Virus record (IMG/VR): IMGVR_UViG_2703718829_000006
Location: 1-14,341 of that record
Reading direction: 5' to 3' (one strand)
DNA length: 14,341 bases
DNA from: a virus
Taxonomy: Duplodnaviria > Heunggongvirae > Uroviricota > Caudoviricetes
The position numbers and the translations under genes are program-made. The notes under the pieces were generated by a model. It had not been told where the DNA came from, ran no database searches, and saw only the letters and a list, made by a program, of their open reading frames with translations. Of the stretch, positions 2,830-13,012 are shown one piece after another (position 1 is the stretch's first letter; each line of letters begins with the position of its first letter).

Positions 2830-3312
2830 CTATTTGATCATCAGAGACGGCTTGCCGAGCTTTATTTGCGCCCCGGGCACGTCAATACCAGCTTCGATTT
2901 GATGCTTGATAGCCAGTTTGTCTGGTTTGATATTCGTCTCGTACTCGATGAATTCAGGCGGTAATGCGCTGGCGTCAGTAATCTCGACAGATTTAGAAGG
3001 TGCGCGAACCGTTACCTGATGAACTCCGGCTTTAAGTGATTTTTTACCGATGGTTTCCAATGATTTAGCGACATACTCCTTCATGCTTGCCACGCGGTTT
3101 TCGGCGGCTTTTGCACGCTCAATAAGGCGCTTACTTTCTTCTTTCAGAGCCTCGGCATAAGCAGATTCGTTTTTGCAGACCGCAAGAATCTGCTCAACCT
3201 TTGCTTCCAGCTCCCACTCAATTCCATCAAGAGTGTCGGCTATCATTTCAGGCTCCATGCCGGAGTCAGTCAGCCTGGCGAAATCGTTGGCGATCTGATA
3301 AAGGGCTGTCAT
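2830..3312 (-). CDS. Siphovirus Gp157-family protein, commonly found next to RecT/Erf recombinases.
   Basis: 160 aa, acidic and coiled-coil-rich, with an N-terminus ([11 protein letters not shown]...) resembling Gp157-family proteins. Sits immediately downstream of recT with a 4-bp overlap. Confidence 0.65.
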   Translation of the reverse strand: MTALYQIANDFARLTDSGMEPEMIADTLDGIEWELEAKVEQILAVCKNESAYAEALKEESKRLIERAKAAENRVASMKEYVAKSLETIGKKSLKAGVHQVTVRAPSKSVEITDASALPPEFIEYETNIKPDKLAIKHQIEAGIDVPGAQIKLGKPSLMIK

Positions 3313-4223
3313 TGGGTAACCTCTTCAAATTTGGCTTTACACTTGGCGTAAACGGCCTGAACCTCTTGCTGTAGGCGCATTCCTGCGGTCATTTTGTAGG
3401 CCGTCTGGAAATGGGTTTTGAGGTCATTCATGTTTTCTGCCTGCTTCATGTCTTCGCAAAGCGAGCGGACGGTGTTAATCAGCTCTTGCTCAGCGTTTTC
3501 TTTCGACTGGATAACTTCACTTTCAGGCGTGTAAGACATAACCGGTTCGGTAAAAATGCCTTCGCTCTCGTTAAGCATGTCCACGGCATTATCGAGACGG
3601 TCAGCGCGCGGCCAGTATTTATAGGCGCGCTTCACGATCGTCTTTCGGGCCATCTCAGACCAGAAGTTGACCCAGGGGCCTTTCGGGGATGTACCGGCTT
3701 TACTCACCTTCCTGATTTCTTCAATTTCGGCGATGCTCATCTCTTCAGTCAGGTAGTCGCCGTCTGATGTTTTAACTGTGCAGTAGCCTCCGATAACGGC
3801 GCCACGCTCTTCAGGTGTGGCGAATGGGTTGTATTTGTGGGCCGGTGCTTTATCGAGGCCAATAGTTTCGTAAGCGTCGTTCGCATGAACCAGCTTGCAT
3901 TGGCCCCACTTAATGACGCCGGCTGATTGGGCTATATGCAAAAGCCCCATATAGCTGATATCAAGGCATACCATGCCGTCACGCGGTACTAAGTAGGCCA
4001 GCTTGCTGGCAGGGTTTAAGCTGATCCCAACCGCTGCCACGTTAATGATTGCGTTCTGAGCGCTGACAGGATTGCTAACTGCCGTTTTGGCTAACGTGTC
4101 ATTGCGCTGAAATAGCTGAATCGCAAACTGGCACTCTTTTGCCCATGTCAGGCTCTGGTCAGTAAGAGCGCTGGTAAACAGCGGCTCTTGCTGTTTAACG
4201 AACTGAATAAGATCGAAGCTCAT
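3309..4223 (-). CDS. recT: RecT-family single-strand annealing recombinase.
   Basis: 304 aa. The block [24 protein letters not shown]...AVDMLNESE closely parallels the conserved RecT block of Rac RecT (GPWVTHWEEMAKKTAIRRLFKYLP...AVSMDEKE). Confidence 0.9.
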
Positions 4224-4516
4224 AGCCCCTCCTCAATGTTGACTTGATGCCGGGCAATGACTTCCACCATGTAGCGCACGTTTTCCGCCATGCGCTCCTG
4301 AAACTCAACATCGTCATCAAACGCACGGGTAATGGCTTTTTTGCTGGCCCCGTGGCGTTGCAAATGATCGATGCATAGCGATTCAAACAGGTGCTGGGGC
4401 AGGCTTTTTTCCATGTCGTCTGCCAGTTCTGCCTCTTTCTCTTCACGGGCGAGCTGCTGGTAGTGACGCGCCCAGCTCTGAGCCTCAAGACGATCCTGAA
4501 TGTAATAAGCGTTCAT
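4220..4516 (-). CDS. gam: Gam, host RecBCD nuclease inhibitor (short GamS-length form).
   Basis: The 98-aa product ([37 protein letters not shown]...) is nearly identical, as recalled, to the C-terminal short form of lambda Gam. 4-bp overlap with recT. Confidence 0.9.
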
Positions 4517-4592: not shown

Positions 4593-4799
4593 TTAGTGAT
4601 TCAGGCCGTTACCGCGTCCGTCGAGAAAAACTTCCACGAGCAAATCACGGGTATAAGTGCGCTCGATGCCGCGATGCAGATAAAGCCGTCCGCGTAAATT
4701 AGCTGATGCAGTCCAGGTACCATCTTTGTGTTTGACCAGCATTCCTGGCATGACCGCGCCGCGATTAACGGTCTGTGTTCCGTAATGTTGATGAACCAT
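4593..4799 (-). CDS. Hypothetical small protein in the kil/cIII position upstream of gam. The start is uncertain: the ORF is open up to a TTG at 5003.
   Basis: The ATG at 4799 is preceded on the minus strand by AGGAG with a 5-nt spacer, giving a 68-aa product (MVHQHYGTQTVNRGAV...). The longer 136-aa frame starts at TTG with no Shine-Dalgarno and has an arginine-rich N-terminus. No family recognised. Confidence 0.4.
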   Translation of the reverse strand: MVHQHYGTQTVNRGAVMPGMLVKHKDGTWTASANLRGRLYLHRGIERTYTRDLLVEVFLDGRGNGLNH

Positions 4800-5052
4800 A
4801 AAAACTCCTGCCCGTAAGCTGGGCTGCTGAACATATAGAGACTTCTGCGCGTATTCAGGCGGTGGATGGCCGCCGGTTGTCATAACTAAGCCGCCTCGTT
4901 GAAGCGACTGAGGTATGAAATGTTGAGTTAATTTCAGCTGGTCACACCGACGTTCACGCGTCCGTTTCACCCCTCGCACTCCCCGAAGCCTGCCGAAATT
5001 CAAACTGCGGATCTAAGCGGTCATCGCAACGGTGAATCAGGTAGTTGCCGTA

Positions 5053-5135
5053 TCGTTGTGTTGTTGCGACGAACTTATTTAAAACTATAGTTGTTTTATC
5101 GTCAACAACAAAAGTTGTTTTATTGGTTGTTTTAG
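5053..5135. promoter_or_regulatory. Putative OL operator / pL region: a cluster of GTTGTT-containing repeats.
   Basis: Direct copies of RGTTGTTTTA at 5089-5098, 5113-5122 and 5125-5134, another GTTGTT at 5060-5065, and an inverted AACAAC at 5104-5109. The same motif recurs in the cI-cro intergenic region. Confidence 0.45.
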
Positions 5136-5245
5136 ATATAACTGATTGTATTTAGGATGGATTTATTTTGTGACTTGAATCGCATAGCGATAACTGAAGC
5201 GAGGTTATGGTGGTTTTTTTAACGGTGTGTGTGATGAGGGGAGGG

Positions 5246-5273
5246 CAAAAGAAAACCCGGCACGGTGACCGGG
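5246..5273 (-). terminator. Putative intrinsic terminator downstream of cI.
   Basis: Plus-strand sequence CCCGG-cacggtga-CCGGG is preceded by caaaagaaaa. On the minus strand this reads as a hairpin followed by a T-rich tract, about 120 nt past the cI stop. Confidence 0.45.
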
Positions 5274-5394
5274 ATTCTTACGCCGTTAGGTAAAGATATT
5301 ATTGCGGTGGCTTAATATTACTACCTAGAGCAAAGATAGGAATTAGTTCTTTACTGAATGAGCACAATGCCCAGTTGATAATTTTTAATTGGTA

Positions 5395-6084
5395 CTACCC
5401 ATGCTTCCTATATGTCTGCGGCATGCTCCCAATAACCTTACCGAAGATGAACACCCGGTTCATCTCGTCTTTCTCGATCGGGTCCCACGGTGAGTAGCTT
5501 TTGTTATCAGAGATGACCAGCAGCTTATCCTTCATCATTTGCAGGCGCTTTACATGGGCTGTGTCGTCGTACAGAAACGCATAGATACCATCACCGTCGA
5601 AAGATTTAACTGTGATATCAACGAACAGCAGATCACCTGGTTCGATCGTTCCTGACATGCTGTCACCACGCACGTTAATGATGCGGATATTTTCCGCCTT
5701 CCTACCATCGAACATGTGACGAGCATCGTCAAACGAGTACTCAACCGAGCGTAGAACTTCTACAAACTCACGGTTGATGACTCCCGGCCCAGCACTGACT
5801 TCTATATCAAGAACGTCAATCTTGAAGTATTTGGAATGGCTGACAGTTGATTGTATTGGTTGCACTGTACTGTCTGACATATTTCCAACGCCAGAAGATA
5901 ACCATTCTGCGCGCACACCCAAAGCGTTCGCGATCTCCACGATTTTAGTTGTTTGATTAGCTTTCCCTGTTTCGATTTTCTGAATAGCAGCCTGGCTAAC
6001 CCCGACCAAATCCCCAAGCGCCTTTTGTGTAAGGCCTCGCGCTAATCTGGCTTCTTTAAGTCTTTCTGAGAGTGTTGTTTTCAT
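5395..6084 (-). CDS. cI: CI-like prophage repressor (N-terminal HTH plus C-terminal S24 LexA-like autopeptidase domain).
   Basis: HTH region LSERLKEARLARGLTQKALGDLVGVSQAAIQKIETGK. The C-terminal domain has GDSM (catalytic Ser) and a VKRL lysine typical of S24 self-cleaving repressors. Start placed at the ATG at 6084; the ORF is open up to 6150, but that upstream ATG lies inside the operator palindrome. Confidence 0.88.
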   Translation of the reverse strand: MKTTLSERLKEARLARGLTQKALGDLVGVSQAAIQKIETGKANQTTKIVEIANALGVRAEWLSSGVGNMSDSTVQPIQSTVSHSKYFKIDVLDIEVSAGPGVINREFVEVLRSVEYSFDDARHMFDGRKAENIRIINVRGDSMSGTIEPGDLLFVDITVKSFDGDGIYAFLYDDTAHVKRLQMMKDKLLVISDNKSYSPWDPIEKDEMNRVFIFGKVIGSMPQTYRKHG

Positions 6085-6161
6085 AGTCCAAATGTACAAC
6101 CAAGGTTTTATTCTATCAAACGAAAATGGTTGTTGACTAAAAACAACCATAGTTTTAATCT
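6072..6161. promoter_or_regulatory. Putative OR operators and pR promoter between cI and cro.
   Basis: 25-bp dyad ATGGTTGTT-gactaaa-AACAACCAT at 6126-6150. A further GTTGTTTT at 6074-6081 abuts the cI start codon. A -35-like TTGACT at 6133-6138 and a -10-like TAATCT at 6156-6161 lie upstream of the cro Shine-Dalgarno GGAGG. Confidence 0.5.
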
Positions 6162-6188
6162 TGATTCAAATTAACCACGGAGGTTGTT

Positions 6189-6419
6189 ATGAACCCAGCT
6201 ATCAAAACAGCGATCAATATCGTTGGTTCACAAAAGAAACTGGGCGCTGCTTGCGAAGTTTCACAGCAGGCCGTCTATAAGTGGCTTCACAACAAAGCAA
6301 AGGTATCCCCTGAACATGTCGGCAGCATTGTTACGGCTACTGGTGGAGTAGTGAAGGCATACCAGATTCGCCCGGATCTTCCGAAGTTGTTTCCACACAC
6401 CGAAAAGAACGCAGCTTAA
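6189..6419 (+). CDS. cro: Cro-like HTH regulator (YdaS/Cro family).
   Basis: 76 aa, divergent from cI, with a strong GGAGG Shine-Dalgarno. HTH segment QKKLGAACEVSQQAVYKWL. Position and pattern match YdaS-type Cro analogues. Confidence 0.8.
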   Translation: MNPAIKTAINIVGSQKKLGAACEVSQQAVYKWLHNKAKVSPEHVGSIVTATGGVVKAYQIRPDLPKLFPHTEKNAA

Positions 6420-6488
6420 ATTTCCATTTCACGCTCTTTAACAATAAGCAATCAACTTAACAGTCAATTCAAACTAAAGGAGTCAATT

Positions 6489-7028
6489 ATGCAACCACTT
6501 CCATACCAACAGACTAGCGGATTTAGCCCGACTGCGGTGATAAATCGTTCTCAAACAAAACAGGTGCTAGGCCACGAAAAAATCCGTGATGCCGTCCGCG
6601 CCTGGTCGGCTGTAGATAATCAGGATGTCGTTGCCACACTCATTGTGAATGAGTATCGGGAGCAGGGCGGCGGCACCATCGATTTCCCTGATGATGTCAG
6701 CCGTGCACGCCAGAAGCTGTTCCGCTTCCTCGATAACAAATTCGATTCTGAAAAATACCGAAATAACGTGCGTGAACTGACCCCGGCAATTCTGGCGGTA
6801 CTACCGCTGGAATATCGCGGTTACCTGGTTGAGCAGGATAGCTTCATGGCTAGGTTGGCTGAAATGGAAAAGGAACTCAGTGAGGCAAAACAGGCTGTCA
6901 TTCTCAACGCACCACGCCACCAGAAACTGAAGGAAATTAGTGAAGGTATTGTGTCGATGTTTCGTGTGGACCCAGATCTGGCTGGTCCATTGATGGCGAT
7001 GGTTACTACCATGCTGGGGGCGATATGA
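6489..7028 (+). CDS. YdaT-like protein in the cII position (putative CII functional analogue).
   Basis: 179 aa with an AAGGAG Shine-Dalgarno, immediately after the Cro/YdaS-like gene and before O. Motifs EYREQGGG and LTPAILAVLP resemble YdaT-family proteins, as recalled. Confidence 0.55.
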   Translation: MQPLPYQQTSGFSPTAVINRSQTKQVLGHEKIRDAVRAWSAVDNQDVVATLIVNEYREQGGGTIDFPDDVSRARQKLFRFLDNKFDSEKYRNNVRELTPAILAVLPLEYRGYLVEQDSFMARLAEMEKELSEAKQAVILNAPRHQKLKEISEGIVSMFRVDPDLAGPLMAMVTTMLGAI

Positions 7029-7114
7029 CAGGTTCAGAAATGGCGAAAGCCGGTCTGCTGGAACAGAACCGACTTTCAGGTGCAAATCGTAACACACTCA
7101 TTGCGGGAGGAATT

Positions 7115-8044
7115 ATGGCAAACACTGCTGAGATATTCAATTTTCCAGTGCCGGATGCGGCACAAAAGGAGCCGCGCGTGGCAGATCTCGATGATGGTTA
7201 TACGCGCATTGCAAATGAGTTGCTGGAAGTTGTGATGCTGGCCGGATTAACACAGCACCAGCTTCTGGTCTTCCTGGCTGTCATGCGCAAAACATATGGT
7301 TTTAATAAAAAACTGGATTGGGTGAGCAACGAGCAACTGTCCGAATTGACCGGGATATTGCCGCACAAGTGTTCTGCTGCAAAAAGTGTTCTGGTAAAGC
7401 GTGGGATTTTGATTCAGAGCGGGCGGAATATCGGTATTAATAATGTGGTCAGTGAATGGTCAACATTACCCGAATCAGGTAAGAAAAATAAAGTTTACCT
7501 GAAAGAGGTAAATTTACCTGAATCAGGTAAGAAAAGTTTACCCAAATCAGGTAAAGGCGTTTACCCGAATCAGGTAAACACAAAAGACAAACTAACAAAA
7601 GACAATATAAAACCTTTTTCGTCCGAGAATTCTGGCGAATCCTCTGACCAGCCAGAAAACGATCTTCCTGTGGTGAAACCAGATGCTGCAATTCAGAGCG
7701 GCAGCAAGTGGGGGACAGCAGAAGACCTGACCGCCGCAGAGTGGATGTTTGACATGGTGAAGACCATCGCGCCATCAGCCAGAAAACCGAATTTTGCTGG
7801 GTGGGCTAACGATATCCGCCTGATGCGTGAACGTGACGGACGTAACCACCGCGACATGTGCGTGCTGTTCCGCTGGGCATGCCAGGACAACTTCTGGTCC
7901 GGTAACGTGCTGAGTCCGGCCAAACTCCGCGACAAGTGGACCCAGCTCGAAATCAACCGAAACAAGCAACAGGCTGGCGTGACAGCTAGCAAACCAAAAC
8001 TCGACCTGACAAACACAGACTGGATTTACGGGGTGGATCTATGA
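7115..8044 (+). CDS. O: Replication initiation protein O (lambda O family).
   Basis: Start placed at the ATG at 7115, preceded by GGGAGG. The N-terminal domain (VADLDDGYTRIANELLE...MRKTYGFNKK) resembles lambda O. The iteron origin is embedded mid-gene, as in lambda. The stop overlaps the start of P. Confidence 0.85.
   Translation: MANTAEIFNFPVPDAAQKEPRVADLDDGYTRIANELLEVVMLAGLTQHQLLVFLAVMRKTYGFNKKLDWVSNEQLSELTGILPHKCSAAKSVLVKRGILIQSGRNIGINNVVSEWSTLPESGKKNKVYLKEVNLPESGKKSLPKSGKGVYPNQVNTKDKLTKDNIKPFSSENSGESSDQPENDLPVVKPDAAIQSGSKWGTAEDLTAAEWMFDMVKTIAPSARKPNFAGWANDIRLMRERDGRNHRDMCVLFRWACQDNFWSGNVLSPAKLRDKWTQLEINRNKQQAGVTASKPKLDLTNTDWIYGVDL
7466..7620. repeat. Origin of replication (ori-lambda-like): five 17-bp iterons plus an adjacent A-rich region, inside the O gene.
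   Basis: TTACC-N7-GGTAA palindromic iterons at 7466-7482, 7495-7511, 7514-7530, 7538-7554 and 7561-7577, followed by the A-rich tract 7578-7620. Confidence 0.8.
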
Positions 8045-8742
8045 AAAACATCGCCGCACAGATGATTAACTTTGACCGTGAGCAGATGCGTCGGATCGCC
8101 AACAACATGCCGGAACAGTACGACGAAAAGCCGCAGGTACAGCAGGTAGCGCAGATCATCAATGGTGTGTTCAGCCAGTTACTGGCAACTTTCCCGGCGA
8201 GCCTGGCTAACCGGGACCAGAACGAACTGAACGAAATCCGCCGCCAGTGGGTTCTGGCTTTCCGGGAAAACGGGATCACCTCGATGGAGCAGGTTGACGC
8301 AGGAATGCGCGTAGCCCGTCGGCAGAATCGACCATTCCTGCCATCACCCGGGCAGTTTGTTGCCTGGTGCCGAGAAGAAGCATCCGTTAACGCCGGGCTG
8401 CCAAACGTCAGCGAGCTGGTTGATATGGTCTATGAGTATTGTCGGAAGCGTGGCCTGTATCCGGATGCAGAGTCTTATCCGTGGAAATCAAACGCGCACT
8501 ACTGGCTGGTTACCAACCTGTACCAGAACATGCGGGCCAATGCGCTGACTGACGCGGAATTACGGCGCAAGGCTGCCGATGAACTGACTTGTATGACCGC
8601 GCGAATTAACCGTGGTGAGGCGATACCTGAACCAGTAAAACAACTTCCTATCATGGGCGGCAGACCTCTAAATCGTGCACAGGCTCTGGCGAAGATCGCA
8701 GAAATCAAAGCTAAGTTCGGACTGAAAGGAGCCAGTGTATGA
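8041..8742 (+). CDS. P: Replication protein P (DnaB helicase loader).
   Basis: 233 aa, essentially matching lambda P along its length as recalled (MKNIAAQM.NFDREQMRRIANNMPEQYDEKPQVQQVAQIINGVFSQLLATFPASLANRDQNE...). Confidence 0.95.
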   Translation: MKNIAAQMINFDREQMRRIANNMPEQYDEKPQVQQVAQIINGVFSQLLATFPASLANRDQNELNEIRRQWVLAFRENGITSMEQVDAGMRVARRQNRPFLPSPGQFVAWCREEASVNAGLPNVSELVDMVYEYCRKRGLYPDAESYPWKSNAHYWLVTNLYQNMRANALTDAELRRKAADELTCMTARINRGEAIPEPVKQLPIMGGRPLNRAQALAKIAEIKAKFGLKGASV

Positions 8743-9038: not shown

Positions 9039-9130
9039 GGTTGACGATAACTCGTGTCTGGAGTTATATTTTGCCCGTTGCCGCAAAATCGGCACACGGG
9101 ATTGGCGTCCCGGAATACTACTCAACGCAT

Positions 9131-9151
9131 ACCGCGTTAAGCGGTTTTTTT
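9131..9151 (+). terminator. Intrinsic terminator after ren (tR2-like position).
   Basis: ACCGC-gttaa-GCGGT hairpin followed by TTTTTTT. Confidence 0.6.
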
Positions 9152-9250
9152 ATGCGCTAAGCACGGCTACGCCCAAATTATGGTGGGCTGTGTGAGGGCT
9201 TCTTCGGGAGCGCCGGGTTTGAGTAGCCGGTTACGCCAACCTTGCACAGT

Positions 9251-9283
9251 TCACCACCAGTCGATTGGCGTCGTTGGTGGTGA
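9251..9283. promoter_or_regulatory. Perfect 9-bp inverted repeat with a 15-bp spacer, just upstream of the Bro-N gene.
   Basis: TCACCACCA (9251-9259) and TGGTGGTGA (9275-9283), about 25 bp upstream of the ATG at 9308. Could be an operator or a 5'UTR hairpin. Confidence 0.4.
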
Positions 9284-9307
9284 TGGTTAACCTGATGAGG
9301 TGATACT

Positions 9308-9916
9308 ATGACTACTCAATTAGCATTCCACAAAACGACTTTTACCCCAATTTGCCACAATAACAGAATTTGGCTTACTGCCACTGAAGTTGGTTTAGCT
9401 CTGGAATATGCGGACGATAAAGCAGTTCAGCGCATTTACTCTCGTCACTCAGATGAATTTACAGATATGATGACAAGGGTGGTCAAAGTGACCACCCCTC
9501 GTGGAATGCAGGAGTCTCGAGTATTTAGCCTTCGCGGAGCCCATTTGATCGCCATGTTTGCACGAACTCCTGTAGCCAAAGAGTTCCGTCGCTGGGTTCT
9601 GGATATTCTCGATCGAGAAGTTCAACAATCCCCAATCATAAAACAATTCACTGATAACGAACTTTGCACACTTGCTTGGTTGTGGCGAGCTGGGGATGCG
9701 ATGTTAACCGCCTGCCAGAACGTTACTCCTCTTCTTCAGGTTGCGGAGCATCGTGAAGCTGGTCGCTTCACTTCTATCGAGCAAGAATATCCCCAGATAC
9801 TCAATAAGGCACAGGCAATCCTTGCCAGAGAAACGGCACATGTAAAATTCCGGCCGTGGCAGGATGATAAGTGGAGTCGAGTTTTGCCGCATTTACGTTC
9901 GGATCGATTACAGTAG
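9308..9916 (+). CDS. Bro-N domain protein (antirepressor/Roi-like family).
   Basis: 202 aa with a GAGGTG Shine-Dalgarno. The N-terminal half fits the Bro-N fold pattern (F....NNRIWLTATEVGLALEY.D......R.......T.GG.Q....I.E.G.Y.LI..S....A..F..WV...). The C-terminal half is unassigned. Confidence 0.8.
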   Translation: MTTQLAFHKTTFTPICHNNRIWLTATEVGLALEYADDKAVQRIYSRHSDEFTDMMTRVVKVTTPRGMQESRVFSLRGAHLIAMFARTPVAKEFRRWVLDILDREVQQSPIIKQFTDNELCTLAWLWRAGDAMLTACQNVTPLLQVAEHREAGRFTSIEQEYPQILNKAQAILARETAHVKFRPWQDDKWSRVLPHLRSDRLQ

Positions 9917-10734: not shown

Positions 10735-10864
10735 AACCTTTGATTTGCGATAATCAACTCGCCATAATCATGTCATCGGAGCCTGAACAACTCCGGTGAC
10801 TTCTGCGCTAAACGGGGACGTTTATGCGCACACACAATCCAAACTCTCTTCTCCCTCCACAGAT

Positions 10865-12189: not shown

Positions 12190-12326
12190 TGTTTGAGTCT
12201 TATATGGCAGAACGTCTTCGCCGCCGCTGGGTGCGCCTGCGCTTATATCATTTTCCCGGTTCTGTTTTGACCGATTACCGAATACTGAAGAATTACGCCA
12301 AAACACTGAAAGGAGCTGCCGCATGA
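12186..12326 (+). CDS. ylcG: YlcG-like small protein (46 aa). Not in the ORF track because it is short.
   Basis: ATG overlaps the rusA stop. Translation [46 protein letters not shown]. Position after rusA matches the DLP12 gene order. The stop overlaps the start of the Q-like gene. Confidence 0.6.
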
Positions 12327-13012
12327 ATACCCAATATTTACAGTATGTCCGCGAGCAACTCATGGTGGCTACCGCTGACTTGAGCGGAGCAACGAAAGGC
12401 CAGCTTGAAGCCTGGCTGGAGCATGCACAATTTGATACTGGTACATACAAACGAAAGAAGCGACGCATTCTGGATGAGGTAACTGGCAAGATTATTATGC
12501 TGGATAATCCGCCGATTTCCGGTAAACAGTCGTACGCAAAAGGTTCATCTGTCGCCCTGATCAGTCCGGTCGAGTTTTCAACCTCTTCATGGCGCCGCGC
12601 TGTTCTGTCTCTCGATGAGCATCAGAAAGCATGGTTGCTGTGGAGTTACAGTGAAAATATTCGCTGGGAGCATCAGGTTGCCATAACGCAGTGGGCATGG
12701 AGCGAGTTTAAGACTCTGTTGGGTACCAGAAAAATTGCAGGTAAGACACTGGAACGCCTGAAGAAGTTGATCTGGCTGGCGGCACAGGATGTGAAGAGCG
12801 AACTGGCAGGGCGTGAGGCTTATGAATACCAGGAACTGGCGTCACTGGTGGGAGTGACATCAAAAAACTGGTCTGAGACATTCACTGAACGCTGGGTTGC
12901 AATGAAGCACATTTTTCTACAGCTTGATAGCGAAGCTTTATTGCTTCTAACGAGAACACGTTCAAAACAAAAGGCGACATTTTCACAGCAAAATATTGCA
13001 AAACTGGATTAA
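12323..13012 (+). CDS. Putative late-gene antiterminator (Q-like). The call rests mainly on position.
   Basis: 229 aa, immediately upstream of the late regulatory region and lysis cassette, in the Q position of lambdoid genomes. Sequence is not lambda Q, and the family assignment was not verified. Confidence 0.55.
   Translation: MNTQYLQYVREQLMVATADLSGATKGQLEAWLEHAQFDTGTYKRKKRRILDEVTGKIIMLDNPPISGKQSYAKGSSVALISPVEFSTSSWRRAVLSLDEHQKAWLLWSYSENIRWEHQVAITQWAWSEFKTLLGTRKIAGKTLERLKKLIWLAAQDVKSELAGREAYEYQELASLVGVTSKNWSETFTERWVAMKHIFLQLDSEALLLLTRTRSKQKATFSQQNIAKLD

Follow-up and report, generated by a model that had tools for sequence, protein, structure and literature searches.

What does the repressor of this phage recognise in its DNA, and at which codon does that repressor begin? 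Both questions arise at positions 5053–6161 of the window, by which we mean the whole analysed stretch of 14,341 nucleotides (IMG/VR record IMGVR_UViG_2703718829_000006). Judged by its sequence, this region is the immunity (lysis/lysogeny) switch of a lambda-like temperate E. coli phage. An earlier note had proposed an immunity region in which cI is flanked by operator motifs, and this is borne out, with a left operator (OL) at 5081–5118 and a right operator (OR) at 6096–6156. The system is of a known type and no new kind, belonging to an ordinary and very common E. coli lambda-like prophage: a 99.8% identical phage, PhiR34_1, has its genes annotated as cI, Cro, cII and O, and 1501 of 5426 complete E. 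coli genomes contain at least 80% of a 2.1-kb query segment (5000–7100). We consider it likely that this is a 434-type lambdoid switch in which cI acts on 14-bp OR and OL sites and starts at 6084, a YdaS-family protein serves as Cro and a YdaT-family protein as CII. The genes concerned are as follows.

5395–6084, minus strand: cI repressor, 229 aa, with a 434-like HTH and an S24 self-cleaving domain
6189–6419, plus strand: cro analogue of the YdaS family, 76 aa (Pfam YdaS_toxin PF15943, E = 4e-17)
6489–7028, plus strand: cII analogue of the YdaT family, 179 aa (Pfam YdaT_toxin PF06254, E = 8e-30)
5246–5273, minus strand: intrinsic terminator of the cI transcript, CCCGGTCACCGTGCCGGG then TTTTCTTTTG, conserved in relatives

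The cI and cro genes are divergent, and the 104-bp gap between them holds three 14-bp sites as well as the hexamers of both pR and pRM, that is, face-to-face promoters overlapped by a multipartite operator. The repressor matches the Pfam families HTH_3 (E = 6.5e-13) and Peptidase_S24 (E = 1.5e-18) and carries the self-cleavage residues Ala98-Gly99, Ser142 and Lys179, from which cleavage is predicted. Its residues 5–68 align to residues 2–65 of the 434 repressor (phmmer, E = 4.5e-9, 24/63 identical), and among solved structures its N-terminal domain is closest to the 434 repressor and to a designed variant of it (dh434). The Gln that we take to read operator position 1 in the 434 complex is retained.

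All motif elements that the earlier note had listed are present, including three exact copies of RGTTGTTTTA (5089–5098, 5113–5122 and 5125–5134) and an inverted AACAAC at 5104–5109. With up to one mismatch, RGTTGTTTTA has 10 matches against 1.74 expected, a number reached in 0 of 200 shuffles. GTTGTT or AACAAC occurs 16 times in the whole window against 8.4 expected, and 10 of the 16 lie within 5050–6190, an interval that makes up 8% of the window (binomial P = 5e-8). These shuffle and binomial tests rule out chance or AT-rich low complexity as the source of the motifs. Two of the copies have other explanations. The GTTGTT at 6074–6079, adjoining the ATG at 6084 and formerly counted among the operator elements, is cI coding sequence (codons 3–4) and reads GTCGTT in 11 of 17 aligned relatives, a synonymous change. 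The second copy lies further left.

5055–5066, no strand: GTTGTGTTGTTG in the pL leader, not an operator

The heteroimmune phages 4A7 and PhiR30_1, which have ATACG-type operators, carry this sequence unchanged and diverge from the present phage only from about 5071. Neither copy is therefore an operator element, and both were rejected as such.

Alignment with homologous immunity regions confirmed the motifs and did not confirm the operator anatomy that had been proposed, in which GTTGTT is the half-site, paired as GTTGTT-N7-AACAAC. The aligned halves pair as ACAAC-N4-GTTGT, and the conserved half-site core is (G/A)GTTGT, equivalent to ACAAC(C/T), rather than GTTGTT. The operator unit best supported by these sequences is the pseudo-palindrome A(C/A)AAC-N4-GTT(G/T)T, 14 bp long and oriented as in phage 434, and the consensus among relatives is ACAACCTAGGTTGT. 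Information per position is 0.5–0.7 bits for the central four bases and 1.2–2.0 bits for the outer ones, and variation among loci is concentrated in these central positions and in the spacers. The exact pattern AMAAC-N4-GTTKT has 4 matches in 14.3 kb, each at OL or OR; allowing one mismatch raises the count to 9, where 2.2 would be expected, and none of 200 shuffles gets as far. A position weight matrix (PWM) built only from other loci gives OR1, OL1, OR3 and OL2 19–21 bits, followed by 10.8 bits for the next match in the window and compared with a maximum of 18.4 bits over 100 shuffles, a test that is partly circular because the training sites were chosen as the best consensus matches inside positional windows. 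Literature searches returned no relevant match for the operator 14-mers and no usable result for RdgA operators.

On the left of cI, the promoter and its predicted sites are arranged as follows.

5077–5105, minus strand: pL, -35 TTGACG (5105–5100), 17-nt spacer, -10 TTAAAT (5082–5077), read from the sequence
5081–5094, no strand: predicted OL1, AAAACTATAGTTGT, an exact AMAAC-N4-GTTKT match covering the pL spacer and -10
5105–5118, no strand: predicted OL2, ACAACAAAAGTTGT, an exact pattern match of 19.1 bits adjoining the pL -35
5125–5134, plus strand: orphan half-site GGTTGT (the third RGTTGTTTTA copy), possibly a weak OL3

Leftward transcription from pL would start near 5070. The TTGAC and the A/T-rich hexamer of pL are conserved in 30 related loci, and the promoter mirrors pR, with 95% complementarity over 19 nt between 5079–5097 and 6140–6158. 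OL1 scores 21.1 bits (100-shuffle maximum 18.4), and ACAACTATAGTTTT stands at its position in 30 related loci. The centres of OL2 and OL1 are 24 bp apart, a distance shared by almost all related loci (one has 23 bp), and the outer positions of OL2 match at 10/10 in lambdoid-type loci and more weakly in Pectobacterium loci. A pair of sites about 24 bp apart downstream of cI is found in 31/31 loci with the recognition helix SQAAIQK. The direct repeats that had been singled out on this side are thus parts of operators in two cases, being the GTTGT halves of OL1 and OL2, and an orphan half-site in the third; the orphan has no partner half at N4, and relatives also have unpaired ACAACC motifs upstream of OL2, at varying distances.

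An N antiterminator gene is missing: no ORF between pL and kil has a Pfam family match, and PGAP annotates none there. A Q gene is present at 12323–13012. An antiterminator RNA like the put elements of HK022 was considered for this N-less pL leader and not established: the leader has no Rfam match and no alignment to HK022 putL/putR, and the folding energy of the whole leader is no better than that of shuffles (z = +0.4). A small plus-strand ORF at about 5208–5297 (29 aa), read by eye, was rejected because its frame is lost in 4A7.

The right side carries the following elements, listed from the cI start towards cro.

6091–6119, minus strand: candidate pRM, -35 TTGATA (6119–6114), 17-nt spacer, -10 TACATT (6096–6091), from a promoter scan
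6096–6109, no strand: predicted OR3, ACAACCAAGGTTTT, an exact pattern match of 20.2 bits over the pRM spacer and -10
6120–6133, no strand: predicted weak OR2, ACGAAAATGGTTGT, centred 42.5 bp upstream of the cI ATG
6126–6150, no strand: 25-bp dyad ATGGTTGTT-N7-AACAACCAT with perfect 9-bp arms, found by direct script
6133–6161, plus strand: pR, -35 TTGACT (6133–6138), 17-nt spacer, -10 TAATCT (6156–6161), read from the sequence
6143–6156, no strand: predicted OR1, ACAACCATAGTTTT, an exact pattern match over the pR spacer and -10

The position of OR3, -25/-26 relative to the cI ATG, is occupied by a site in 31/31 SQAAIQK-helix loci, often by the perfect palindrome ACAACCTAGGTTGT. OR1 is the top PWM match of all at 21.2 bits, lies 23 bp from OR2 and is conserved at -72/-73 in lambdoid-type loci. 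OR2 scores only 8.0 bits, which is inside the shuffle range, and is a candidate by virtue of positional conservation among related, non-independent loci, most of the lambdoid-type ones keeping both its position and its sequence. The pR hexamers are conserved as TTGAnT and TAnnnT across 18 loci; the promoter scan does not list pR because its -10 has just 3/6 consensus matches.

How, then, is the dyad to be read? It had been proposed as the operator unit itself, with a repressor that reads GTTGTT half-sites as the 25-bp dyad on the right and as the RGTTGTTTTA repeats and their inverted copy on the left, and this we now consider unlikely. The dyad is indeed perfect and located over the pR -35, the left 10-mer is exact three times, and the arms are complementary over 8 bp in about half of the related loci, sometimes through changes in both arms. 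However, its half-site centres are 14 bp apart with ACAA facing outward, and in both respects this is the reverse of the 434-type geometry expected from the homologous DNA-binding domain. OR3 and OL2, the strongest and most conserved sites, are 14-bp palindromes that stand alone and lack an N7–N9 partner. Conservation does not extend to the final T of GTTGTT (OR3 reads GGTTGTAC), and across the -35 the half-sites are spaced one base further apart at OL than at OR. In the Klebsiella phage ST101-KPC2phi6.1 the dyad arms are degraded and outer arm complementarity is gone, yet all three 14-mers are kept, and heteroimmune relatives have 14-bp palindromes at the equivalent places. Perfect 9-bp hairpins number 3 in the window against 0.5 expected, so that such a hairpin is not rare alone.

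On the 14-bp reading, the dyad is the inner halves of the predicted OR2 and OR1, head to head around the pR -35 hexamer. Both the dyad and the direct repeats arise because adjacent operators turn their consensus halves toward the -35 hexamers and because the outer halves depart from the consensus where they coincide with promoter hexamers, and the case illustrates that half-sites can be paired wrongly where neighbouring operators stand face to face. In several loci a change in the inner half of OR1 is accompanied by a matching one in the inner half of OR2 (ATGG/CCAT versus ATAG/CTAT; GTTGT/ACAAC versus GTTTT/AAAAC), and this joint change could reflect a real constraint on the dyad.

Slightly less probable again is a function of the dyad in its own right, either as a preferred site of the YdaS-type Cro or as an RNA hairpin that attenuates leftward (pRE-type) transcripts before cI. 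As RNA the dyad folds at -8.9 kcal/mol on the minus strand, where UUUUCGUUUGA follows (z = -2.6), and at -10.8 kcal/mol on the plus strand (z = -3.6); the terminator scan lists it on both strands, and in CP-933P, where inverted and direct repeats occur, the footprints of YdaS and the repressor overlap (PMC8630535). However, the dyad on the plus strand lies upstream of the pR start, so it would not be transcribed from pR; G-C pairs in the stem number just 3, a terminator ahead of cI on the establishment transcript would be counter-productive, and the dyad is already accounted for by the 14-bp sites.

The second question concerns the start of cI, for which the longest ORF (5395–6150, 251 aa, with an ATG start) differs from the 229-aa form annotated by PGAP as WP_000858975.1. 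The earlier note had suspected that the 251-aa ORF is over-extended and that the real start is the ATG at 6084, and the evidence agrees: of 28 relatives, 24 have an in-frame stop at most 9 codons ahead of the conserved ATG, and 25 offer no alternative ATG further upstream. That the real repressor is the 251-aa product from 6150, as in GenBank PV340559, is highly improbable: its frame is open, begins with an ATG and has one depositor's annotation behind it, but the 22-aa extension covers OR1, OR2, OR3 and both promoters, is stopped in those 24 relatives, is without counterpart in the 434 repressor alignment and has no Shine-Dalgarno ahead of 6150, and PGAP places the start at 6084.

No Shine-Dalgarno precedes 6084 either, as had been noticed, and the geometry is that of the leaderless lambda pRM, with TACATT-TGGACT-ATG placing the -10 6 nt before the cI ATG. 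The majority of the 18 aligned loci, and of the 31 SQAAIQK-helix loci, keep TAnATT at this 6-nt distance from the ATG (7 nt in 4A7), and Shine-Dalgarno-like motifs are almost absent before the cI ATG among these loci. With this hexamer and no Shine-Dalgarno, the cI mRNA, read from the ATG at 6084, is probably leaderless. Another candidate from the promoter scan is an extended -10, TGaTAGAAT at 6110–6115, which would give a leader of about 19 nt; it was set aside as pRM because the hexamer is unconserved in relatives and TAnATT is conserved. A precedent is paaR2, which is leaderless in the YdaS/YdaT prophage CP-933P (PMC8630535).

As the earlier note had proposed, the genes to the right are YdaS/YdaT-like rather than classical Cro/CII, with the Pfam matches given above. 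The cro analogue matches P22_Cro at E = 8e-5, below the Pfam cut-off, and its best solved relative is the Xylella prophage Cro (3bd1). In the cII position there is a YdaT_toxin-domain protein and no classical CII (Pfam Phage_CII), with a weak match to CP-933P YdaT 8bt1 (E = 8e-4). By analogy, the YdaS-family protein would have the Cro role and the YdaT-family protein the CII role, the latter following work on related prophages (PMC8630535, PMC9986795, PMC11879457). The YdaT box (T/A)TGATT-N6-AATCAA is absent from the ydaS end and ydaT start, where the best nearby matches (6161–6178 and 6438–6455) have 2–3 mismatches; an exact TTGATT-N6-AATCAA box occurs only at 10740–10757, and there are no inverted repeats in 6300–6560.

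From the anatomy, homology, conservation and covariation observed across loci, we infer cI binding, the order of occupancy, activation, the transcription starts and the YdaS and YdaT roles. Dimers of cI are predicted to bind the pseudo-palindromes A(C/A)AAC-N4-GTT(G/T)T. Three OR sites, 23–24 bp apart, would include OR1 and OR2, which bracket and overlap the pR -35 and -10 and would thereby switch cro off, while the OR2 centre, 42.5 bp upstream of the cI ATG, is at the position from which lambda repressor activates pRM. OR3, over the pRM -10 and spacer, would provide negative autoregulation, and OL1 and OL2 would bracket the pL -35 as at pR. The repressor would be made from its ATG at 6084, probably on the leaderless pRM transcript, with the YdaS-family protein acting as Cro and the YdaT-family protein as CII.

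Like phage 434 (ACAA-N6-TTGT), the switch has a homologous DNA-binding domain, a LexA-type C-terminal domain, predicted 14-bp operators with inward ACAA at both ends around a variable centre, one strong and one weaker operator half, and three OR sites. It differs in its half-site (ACAAC(C/T) here, ACAAG/ACAAT in 434), its recognition helix (QAAIQK here, QQSIEQ in 434), its operator centres at 23–24 bp and its YdaS-family Cro, whereas the 434 Cro is a repressor paralogue. With lambda it shares divergent cI and cro, a tripartite OR, a second operator about 1 kb away at pL, an OR2 centre about 42 bp upstream of the cI start, a -10 hexamer 6 nt before an ATG that has no Shine-Dalgarno, and the replication genes O and P that follow. 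In contrast to lambda, the operators are 14 bp rather than 17 bp, OL has two clear sites and an orphan half-site, rex and N are lacking, a YdaT-family protein replaces CII and a possible extra site lies over the cro ribosome-binding site. CP-933P (PaaR2/YdaS/YdaT) and Rac (RacR/YdaS/YdaT) also have YdaS and YdaT families in the cro and cII positions (PMC8630535, PMC9986795, PMC11879457) and operators at PR/PRM and at PL, and CP-933P has a leaderless repressor gene, as predicted here. However, the repressor here is an HTH plus S24 cI with a 434-like HTH and not of the PaaR2/RacR type, the operators bear no sequence relation to the GTTTAGTAA-type repeats of CP-933P, the similarity to the YdaT of that prophage is only distant (E = 8e-4) and no TTGATT-N6-AATCAA box lies between cro and ydaT.

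The heteroimmune sister phages 4A7, Lambda_4C10 and PhiR30_1 (Bievrevirus) share the genome backbone and arrange their operators and promoters in the same way; identity is 90–97% in ydaT, O, kil, the pL leader and the C-terminal portion of cI (codon 45 onward). In these phages cI codons 1–44, OR, cro and the OL cassette are replaced, the operators are ATACG-N4-CGTAT and the recognition helix is AQPTIWR. The 31 loci with the SQAAIQK helix carry ACAAC..GTTGT sites 25 nt upstream of the cI ATG, whereas AQPTIWR-helix relatives have ATACG-N4-CGTAT 14-mers at the equivalent positions.

OR may hold a fourth repressor site, which we put forward tentatively.

6174–6187, no strand: tentative fourth site, ACCACGGAGGTTGT, over the cro Shine-Dalgarno, at about +7 to +20 of pR

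It matches at 9/10 outer positions, and at 8/10 or more in 14 of 18 lambdoid-type loci; its score in the window is only 5.3 bits, not significant as such, and the case for it is one of positional conservation among non-independent loci. At the equivalent position ATACG-family loci have ATAC(N) and the ACAAC family AC(N)AC, and an upstream half-site that switches with the immunity type suggests selection for a downstream operator. The site lies roughly three helical turns from OR1, and in some loci the strong half of the site is shifted to the opposite side of the Shine-Dalgarno.

If real, the fourth site would add a roadblock or extra cooperativity to pR repression and, together with the missing N gene on the pL side, would give a lambdoid switch with somewhat different wiring. 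The corrected repressor of 229 aa, in place of the 251 aa in GenBank PV340559, matters because this immunity type is among the commonest in E. coli, as the genome count above shows. The predicted operator consensus ACAACC-TA-GGTTGT is tied to the helix SQAAIQK, with AQPTIWR and ATACG-N4-CGTAT as the contrasting pair, and this pairing may help to predict superinfection immunity groups and to engineer repressor/operator pairs that are orthogonal.

The region around cI is a standard lambdoid switch with predicted 434-type operators of 14 bp. The earlier note had read it as an immunity region with motifs on both sides of cI, a reading that is supported. Over the surrounding 2.1 kb it is 99.8% identical to Escherichia phage PhiR34_1, in whose record the genes are labelled cI, Cro, cII and O. 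Among 5,426 complete E. coli genomes, 2,225 match the 2.1-kb segment, and at least 80% of it is covered in 1,501.

Features of the window (coordinates, strand, identity)
3309-4223, minus, RecT-family recombinase
4220-4516, minus, gam
4593-4799, minus, kil
about 270 nt, between kil and pL (the leftward promoter), ORF-less leader
about 5081-5134, left operator
5256-5273, minus, terminator
5395-6084, minus, cI
6189-6419, plus, cro analogue
6489-7028, plus, cII analogue
7025-8044, plus, O
8041-8742, plus, P
12323-13012, plus, Q

No gene lies between the cI stop codon and the terminator (5274-5394) in this phage. In relatives (loci L004, L005 and L006) this interval holds varied cargo genes: a Klebsiella phage has RexA/RexB there, the heteroimmune sister phage 4A7 an ASCH-domain protein, and others hypothetical proteins. 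The site seems to be a hot spot for moron insertions.

Among solved structures, the phage 434 repressor and a designed variant of it are nearest to the cI N-terminal domain; cI residues 5-68 give a gap-free alignment with residues 2-65 of the 434 repressor (E = 4.5e-9, 24 of 63 identical). Operators of 434 are 14 bp long, with ACAA reading inward from both ends. The pattern A(C/A)AAC-N4-GTT(G/T)T matches exactly four times in the window, each time at a predicted operator, on the left at pL (OL) or on the right between cI and cro (OR). A weaker fifth site, midway between OR3 and OR1, is predicted to take the role of OR2.

Predicted operators (coordinates, name, sequence, match)
5081-5094, OL1, AAAACTATAGTTGT, exact pattern match
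5105-5118, OL2, ACAACAAAAGTTGT, exact pattern match
6096-6109, OR3, ACAACCAAGGTTTT, exact pattern match
6120-6133, OR2, ACGAAAATGGTTGT, weaker fifth site
6143-6156, OR1, ACAACCATAGTTTT, exact pattern match

Neighbouring OR sites lie 24 and 23 bp apart, centre to centre, and the two OL sites 24 bp. A position weight matrix (PWM) for the motif, trained solely on loci other than the window, scores OR1 at 21.2, OL1 at 21.1, OR3 at 20.2 and OL2 at 19.1 bits, against a maximum of 18.4 bits in 100 window shuffles and 10.8 bits for the next-best window match, a test that is partly circular, since each training site had been chosen as the best match inside a positional window. OR2, at 8.0 bits, is not significant by motif score alone.

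The motifs listed in the earlier note are all present: direct copies of RGTTGTTTTA at 5089, 5113 and 5125, an inverted AACAAC at 5104-5109, a perfect dyad ATGGTTGTT-N7-AACAACCAT at 6126-6150, a GTTGTT (6074-6079) adjoining the cI ATG at 6084, and a 251-aa ORF extending to 6150. GTTGTT/AACAAC hexamers are concentrated, with 10 of 16 inside 8% of the window (P = 5e-8); perfect 9-bp hairpins number 3 in the window against 0.5 expected, so one alone is not unusual. The operator anatomy built on these motifs, with GTTGTT as half-site and the 25-bp dyad as binding unit, is not supported, and predicted 434-type 14-bp sites take its place. The consensus halves of OR2 (ATGGTTGT) and OR1 (ACAACCAT) face each other across the -35 hexamer (TTGACT, 6133-6138) of pR, the rightward cro promoter, and the dyad is an inverted repeat because two such halves necessarily form one; the outer halves depart from the consensus where they run into the pR -10 (TAATCT, 6156-6161) and the -35 of pRM, the candidate cI promoter. 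As a binding unit, the dyad would place its half-site centres at a distance of 14 bp and have ACAA read outward, a misfit with a 434-type dimer. Three further observations speak against it: the equivalent OL arrangement is spaced one base wider; Klebsiella phage ST101-KPC2phi6.1, whose cI is 61% identical over the N-terminal 92 residues, retains all three 14-mers but has lost the outer arm complementarity (ATGGTTGTT...TACAACTAA); and the T completing GTTGTT is unconserved. At the left operator, OL1 and OL2 account for two of the three direct repeats, which are their GTTGT halves plus flanking bases; the third (5125-5134) is an orphan half-site, of a kind that recurs in relatives at varying distances.

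The comparative set comprised 67 loci encoding relatives of the cI N-terminal domain, with each species represented by a single genome, together with several phage records. All 31 loci whose repressor recognition helix is SQAAIQK (in one case TQAAIQK) have an operator-type 14-mer that begins 25-26 nt before the cI ATG and is in many of them the perfect palindrome ACAACCTAGGTTGT; they also have, 0.85-3.3 kb downstream of cI, two sites spaced about 24 bp from each other. Lambdoid-type loci have a further site at -72/-73, and most also one at -49. Across an 18-locus alignment the outer five positions per 14-mer, the promoter hexamers, the cro Shine-Dalgarno (SD) and both start codons are conserved, and the central four positions and the spacers are variable.

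Chromosomal repressor homologues with an identical recognition helix occur in Pectobacterium and relatives (loci L009-L022), with a single perfect palindrome ACAACCTAGGTTGT over the repressor's own promoter; the OR1/OR2 pair is absent there, though an OL-like pair is present about 1.1 kb away. These homologues may be tied to the RdgA/RdgB DNA-damage circuit of Pectobacterium, and Erwinia phage phiEt88 has a related repressor that bears the annotation rdgA. Inside cI, an operator-like 14-mer (ACGATTTTAGTTGT, 5939-5952, 10.1 bits) codes for QTTKIV, and the equivalent position in the Pectobacterium homologues reads ACAACCAAAATTGT (9 of 10 outer positions matched); it may be a mere by-product of the conserved peptide.

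The PhiR34_1 record annotates cI as a 251-aa form. The short start at the ATG at 6084, preferred in the earlier note, agrees with the 229-aa PGAP annotation (WP_000858975.1), with the 434 alignment, which starts at residue 5 of the short form, and with the relatives, 24 of 28 of which have an in-frame stop no more than 9 codons before the conserved ATG. The 22 extra codons of the long form would overlie operators and both promoters. A leaderless cI without SD, also suggested there, fits a TAnATT hexamer 6 nt ahead of the ATG in most loci (window, TACATT-TGGACT-ATG), with TTGATA 17 nt further upstream and SD-like motifs nearly absent. The geometry is that of lambda pRM, whose transcript begins at the A of the AUG, and would put OR2 at -42.5, with OR3 covering the -10 hexamer and the spacer. 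From this sequence-based start site, the cI mRNA is probably leaderless. In the YdaS/YdaT prophage CP-933P, the repressor gene paaR2 is leaderless by experiment (PMC8630535).

Phages 4A7 and PhiR30_1, both heteroimmune, share the backbone at 90-97% identity but differ in cI codons 1-44, OR and cro (window 5952-6487) and in an OL cassette (about 5071-5160). In these two phages the recognition helix reads AQPTIWR, and the 14-bp operators, ATACG-N4-CGTAT (for example, ATACGCAAGCGTAT), keep the window's positions, 25 bp apart. Both operator families have A as first base, and both helices keep the first Gln, which in the 434 complex contacts operator position 1. The recombination boundaries lie at 5951/5952, inside cI at codons 44/45 right behind the recognition helix, and at 6487/6488; the specificity module is therefore cI helices 1-3, OR and cro, plus the separate OL cassette. 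A fourth operator over the cro SD is proposed tentatively, because the site there (ACCACGGAGGTTGT, 6174-6187), which matches 9 of 10 outer positions, has a PWM score of only 5.3 bits. Of 18 lambdoid-type loci, 14 have a site at the equivalent place that matches at least 8 of 10; the strong half sits on the opposite side of the SD in some loci, and ATACG-family loci have ATAC(N)-N4-GGAAT there.

The right side is YdaS/YdaT-like, as the earlier note held: the 76-aa cro analogue matches Pfam YdaS_toxin (E = 4e-17) and weakly P22_Cro (E = 8e-5), with a Xylella prophage Cro as nearest solved relative, and the 179-aa cII analogue matches YdaT_toxin (E = 8e-30) and, distantly, CP-933P YdaT (E = 8e-4). 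In CP-933P and Rac, YdaS and YdaT serve as Cro and CII analogues (PMC8630535, PMC9986795, PMC11879457). The published YdaT box, TTGATT-N6-AATCAA, was not found between cro and ydaT. An exact match (TTGATTTGCGATAATCAA, 10740-10757) lies where the phage 82 nin region has an annotated putative promoter, and coincides with that promoter's -35 hexamer and spacer. An inverted repeat downstream (10772-10800) is annotated in phage 82 as a 'possible regulator-binding site'; YdaT may act at this box in analogy to lambda paQ, or the match may be due to chance. Around the ydaT ribosome-binding site, an exact direct repeat, AGTCAATT (6462-6469 and 6481-6488, 19 bp apart; -35-like AATTGACT on the minus strand), is a candidate pRE region or site for the divergent YdaT.

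An N gene is absent from the roughly 270 nt without annotated ORF between pL and kil (4800-5075, minus strand), and the Q antiterminator (12323-13012) is present despite this. The leader is conserved in the heteroimmune phages and gave no Rfam match and no similarity to HK022 put RNAs. Within it, a 63-nt element (4858-4920, minus strand) with two predicted hairpins and no U-tract is 97% identical in phage HK225, immediately upstream of kil, and 85% identical in phi80, directly downstream of N; it may be a tL1-like or processing signal. In the nin region, Rfam gathering-level matches to isrK (9079-9151) and C4 antisense RNA (9176-9261) precede an ORF (9308-9916) encoding Bro-N and P22 antirepressor C-terminal domains. 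Together (9079-9916) they form a second antirepressor module, under RNA control and of the type known from P1 c4/ant or Gifsy IsrK, which could allow RecA-independent inactivation of cI.

The earlier observation is real and its reading correct in outline, an immunity region with a short cI start followed by YdaS/YdaT. We claim no new kind of system: the switch belongs to a known type that is very common in E. coli.
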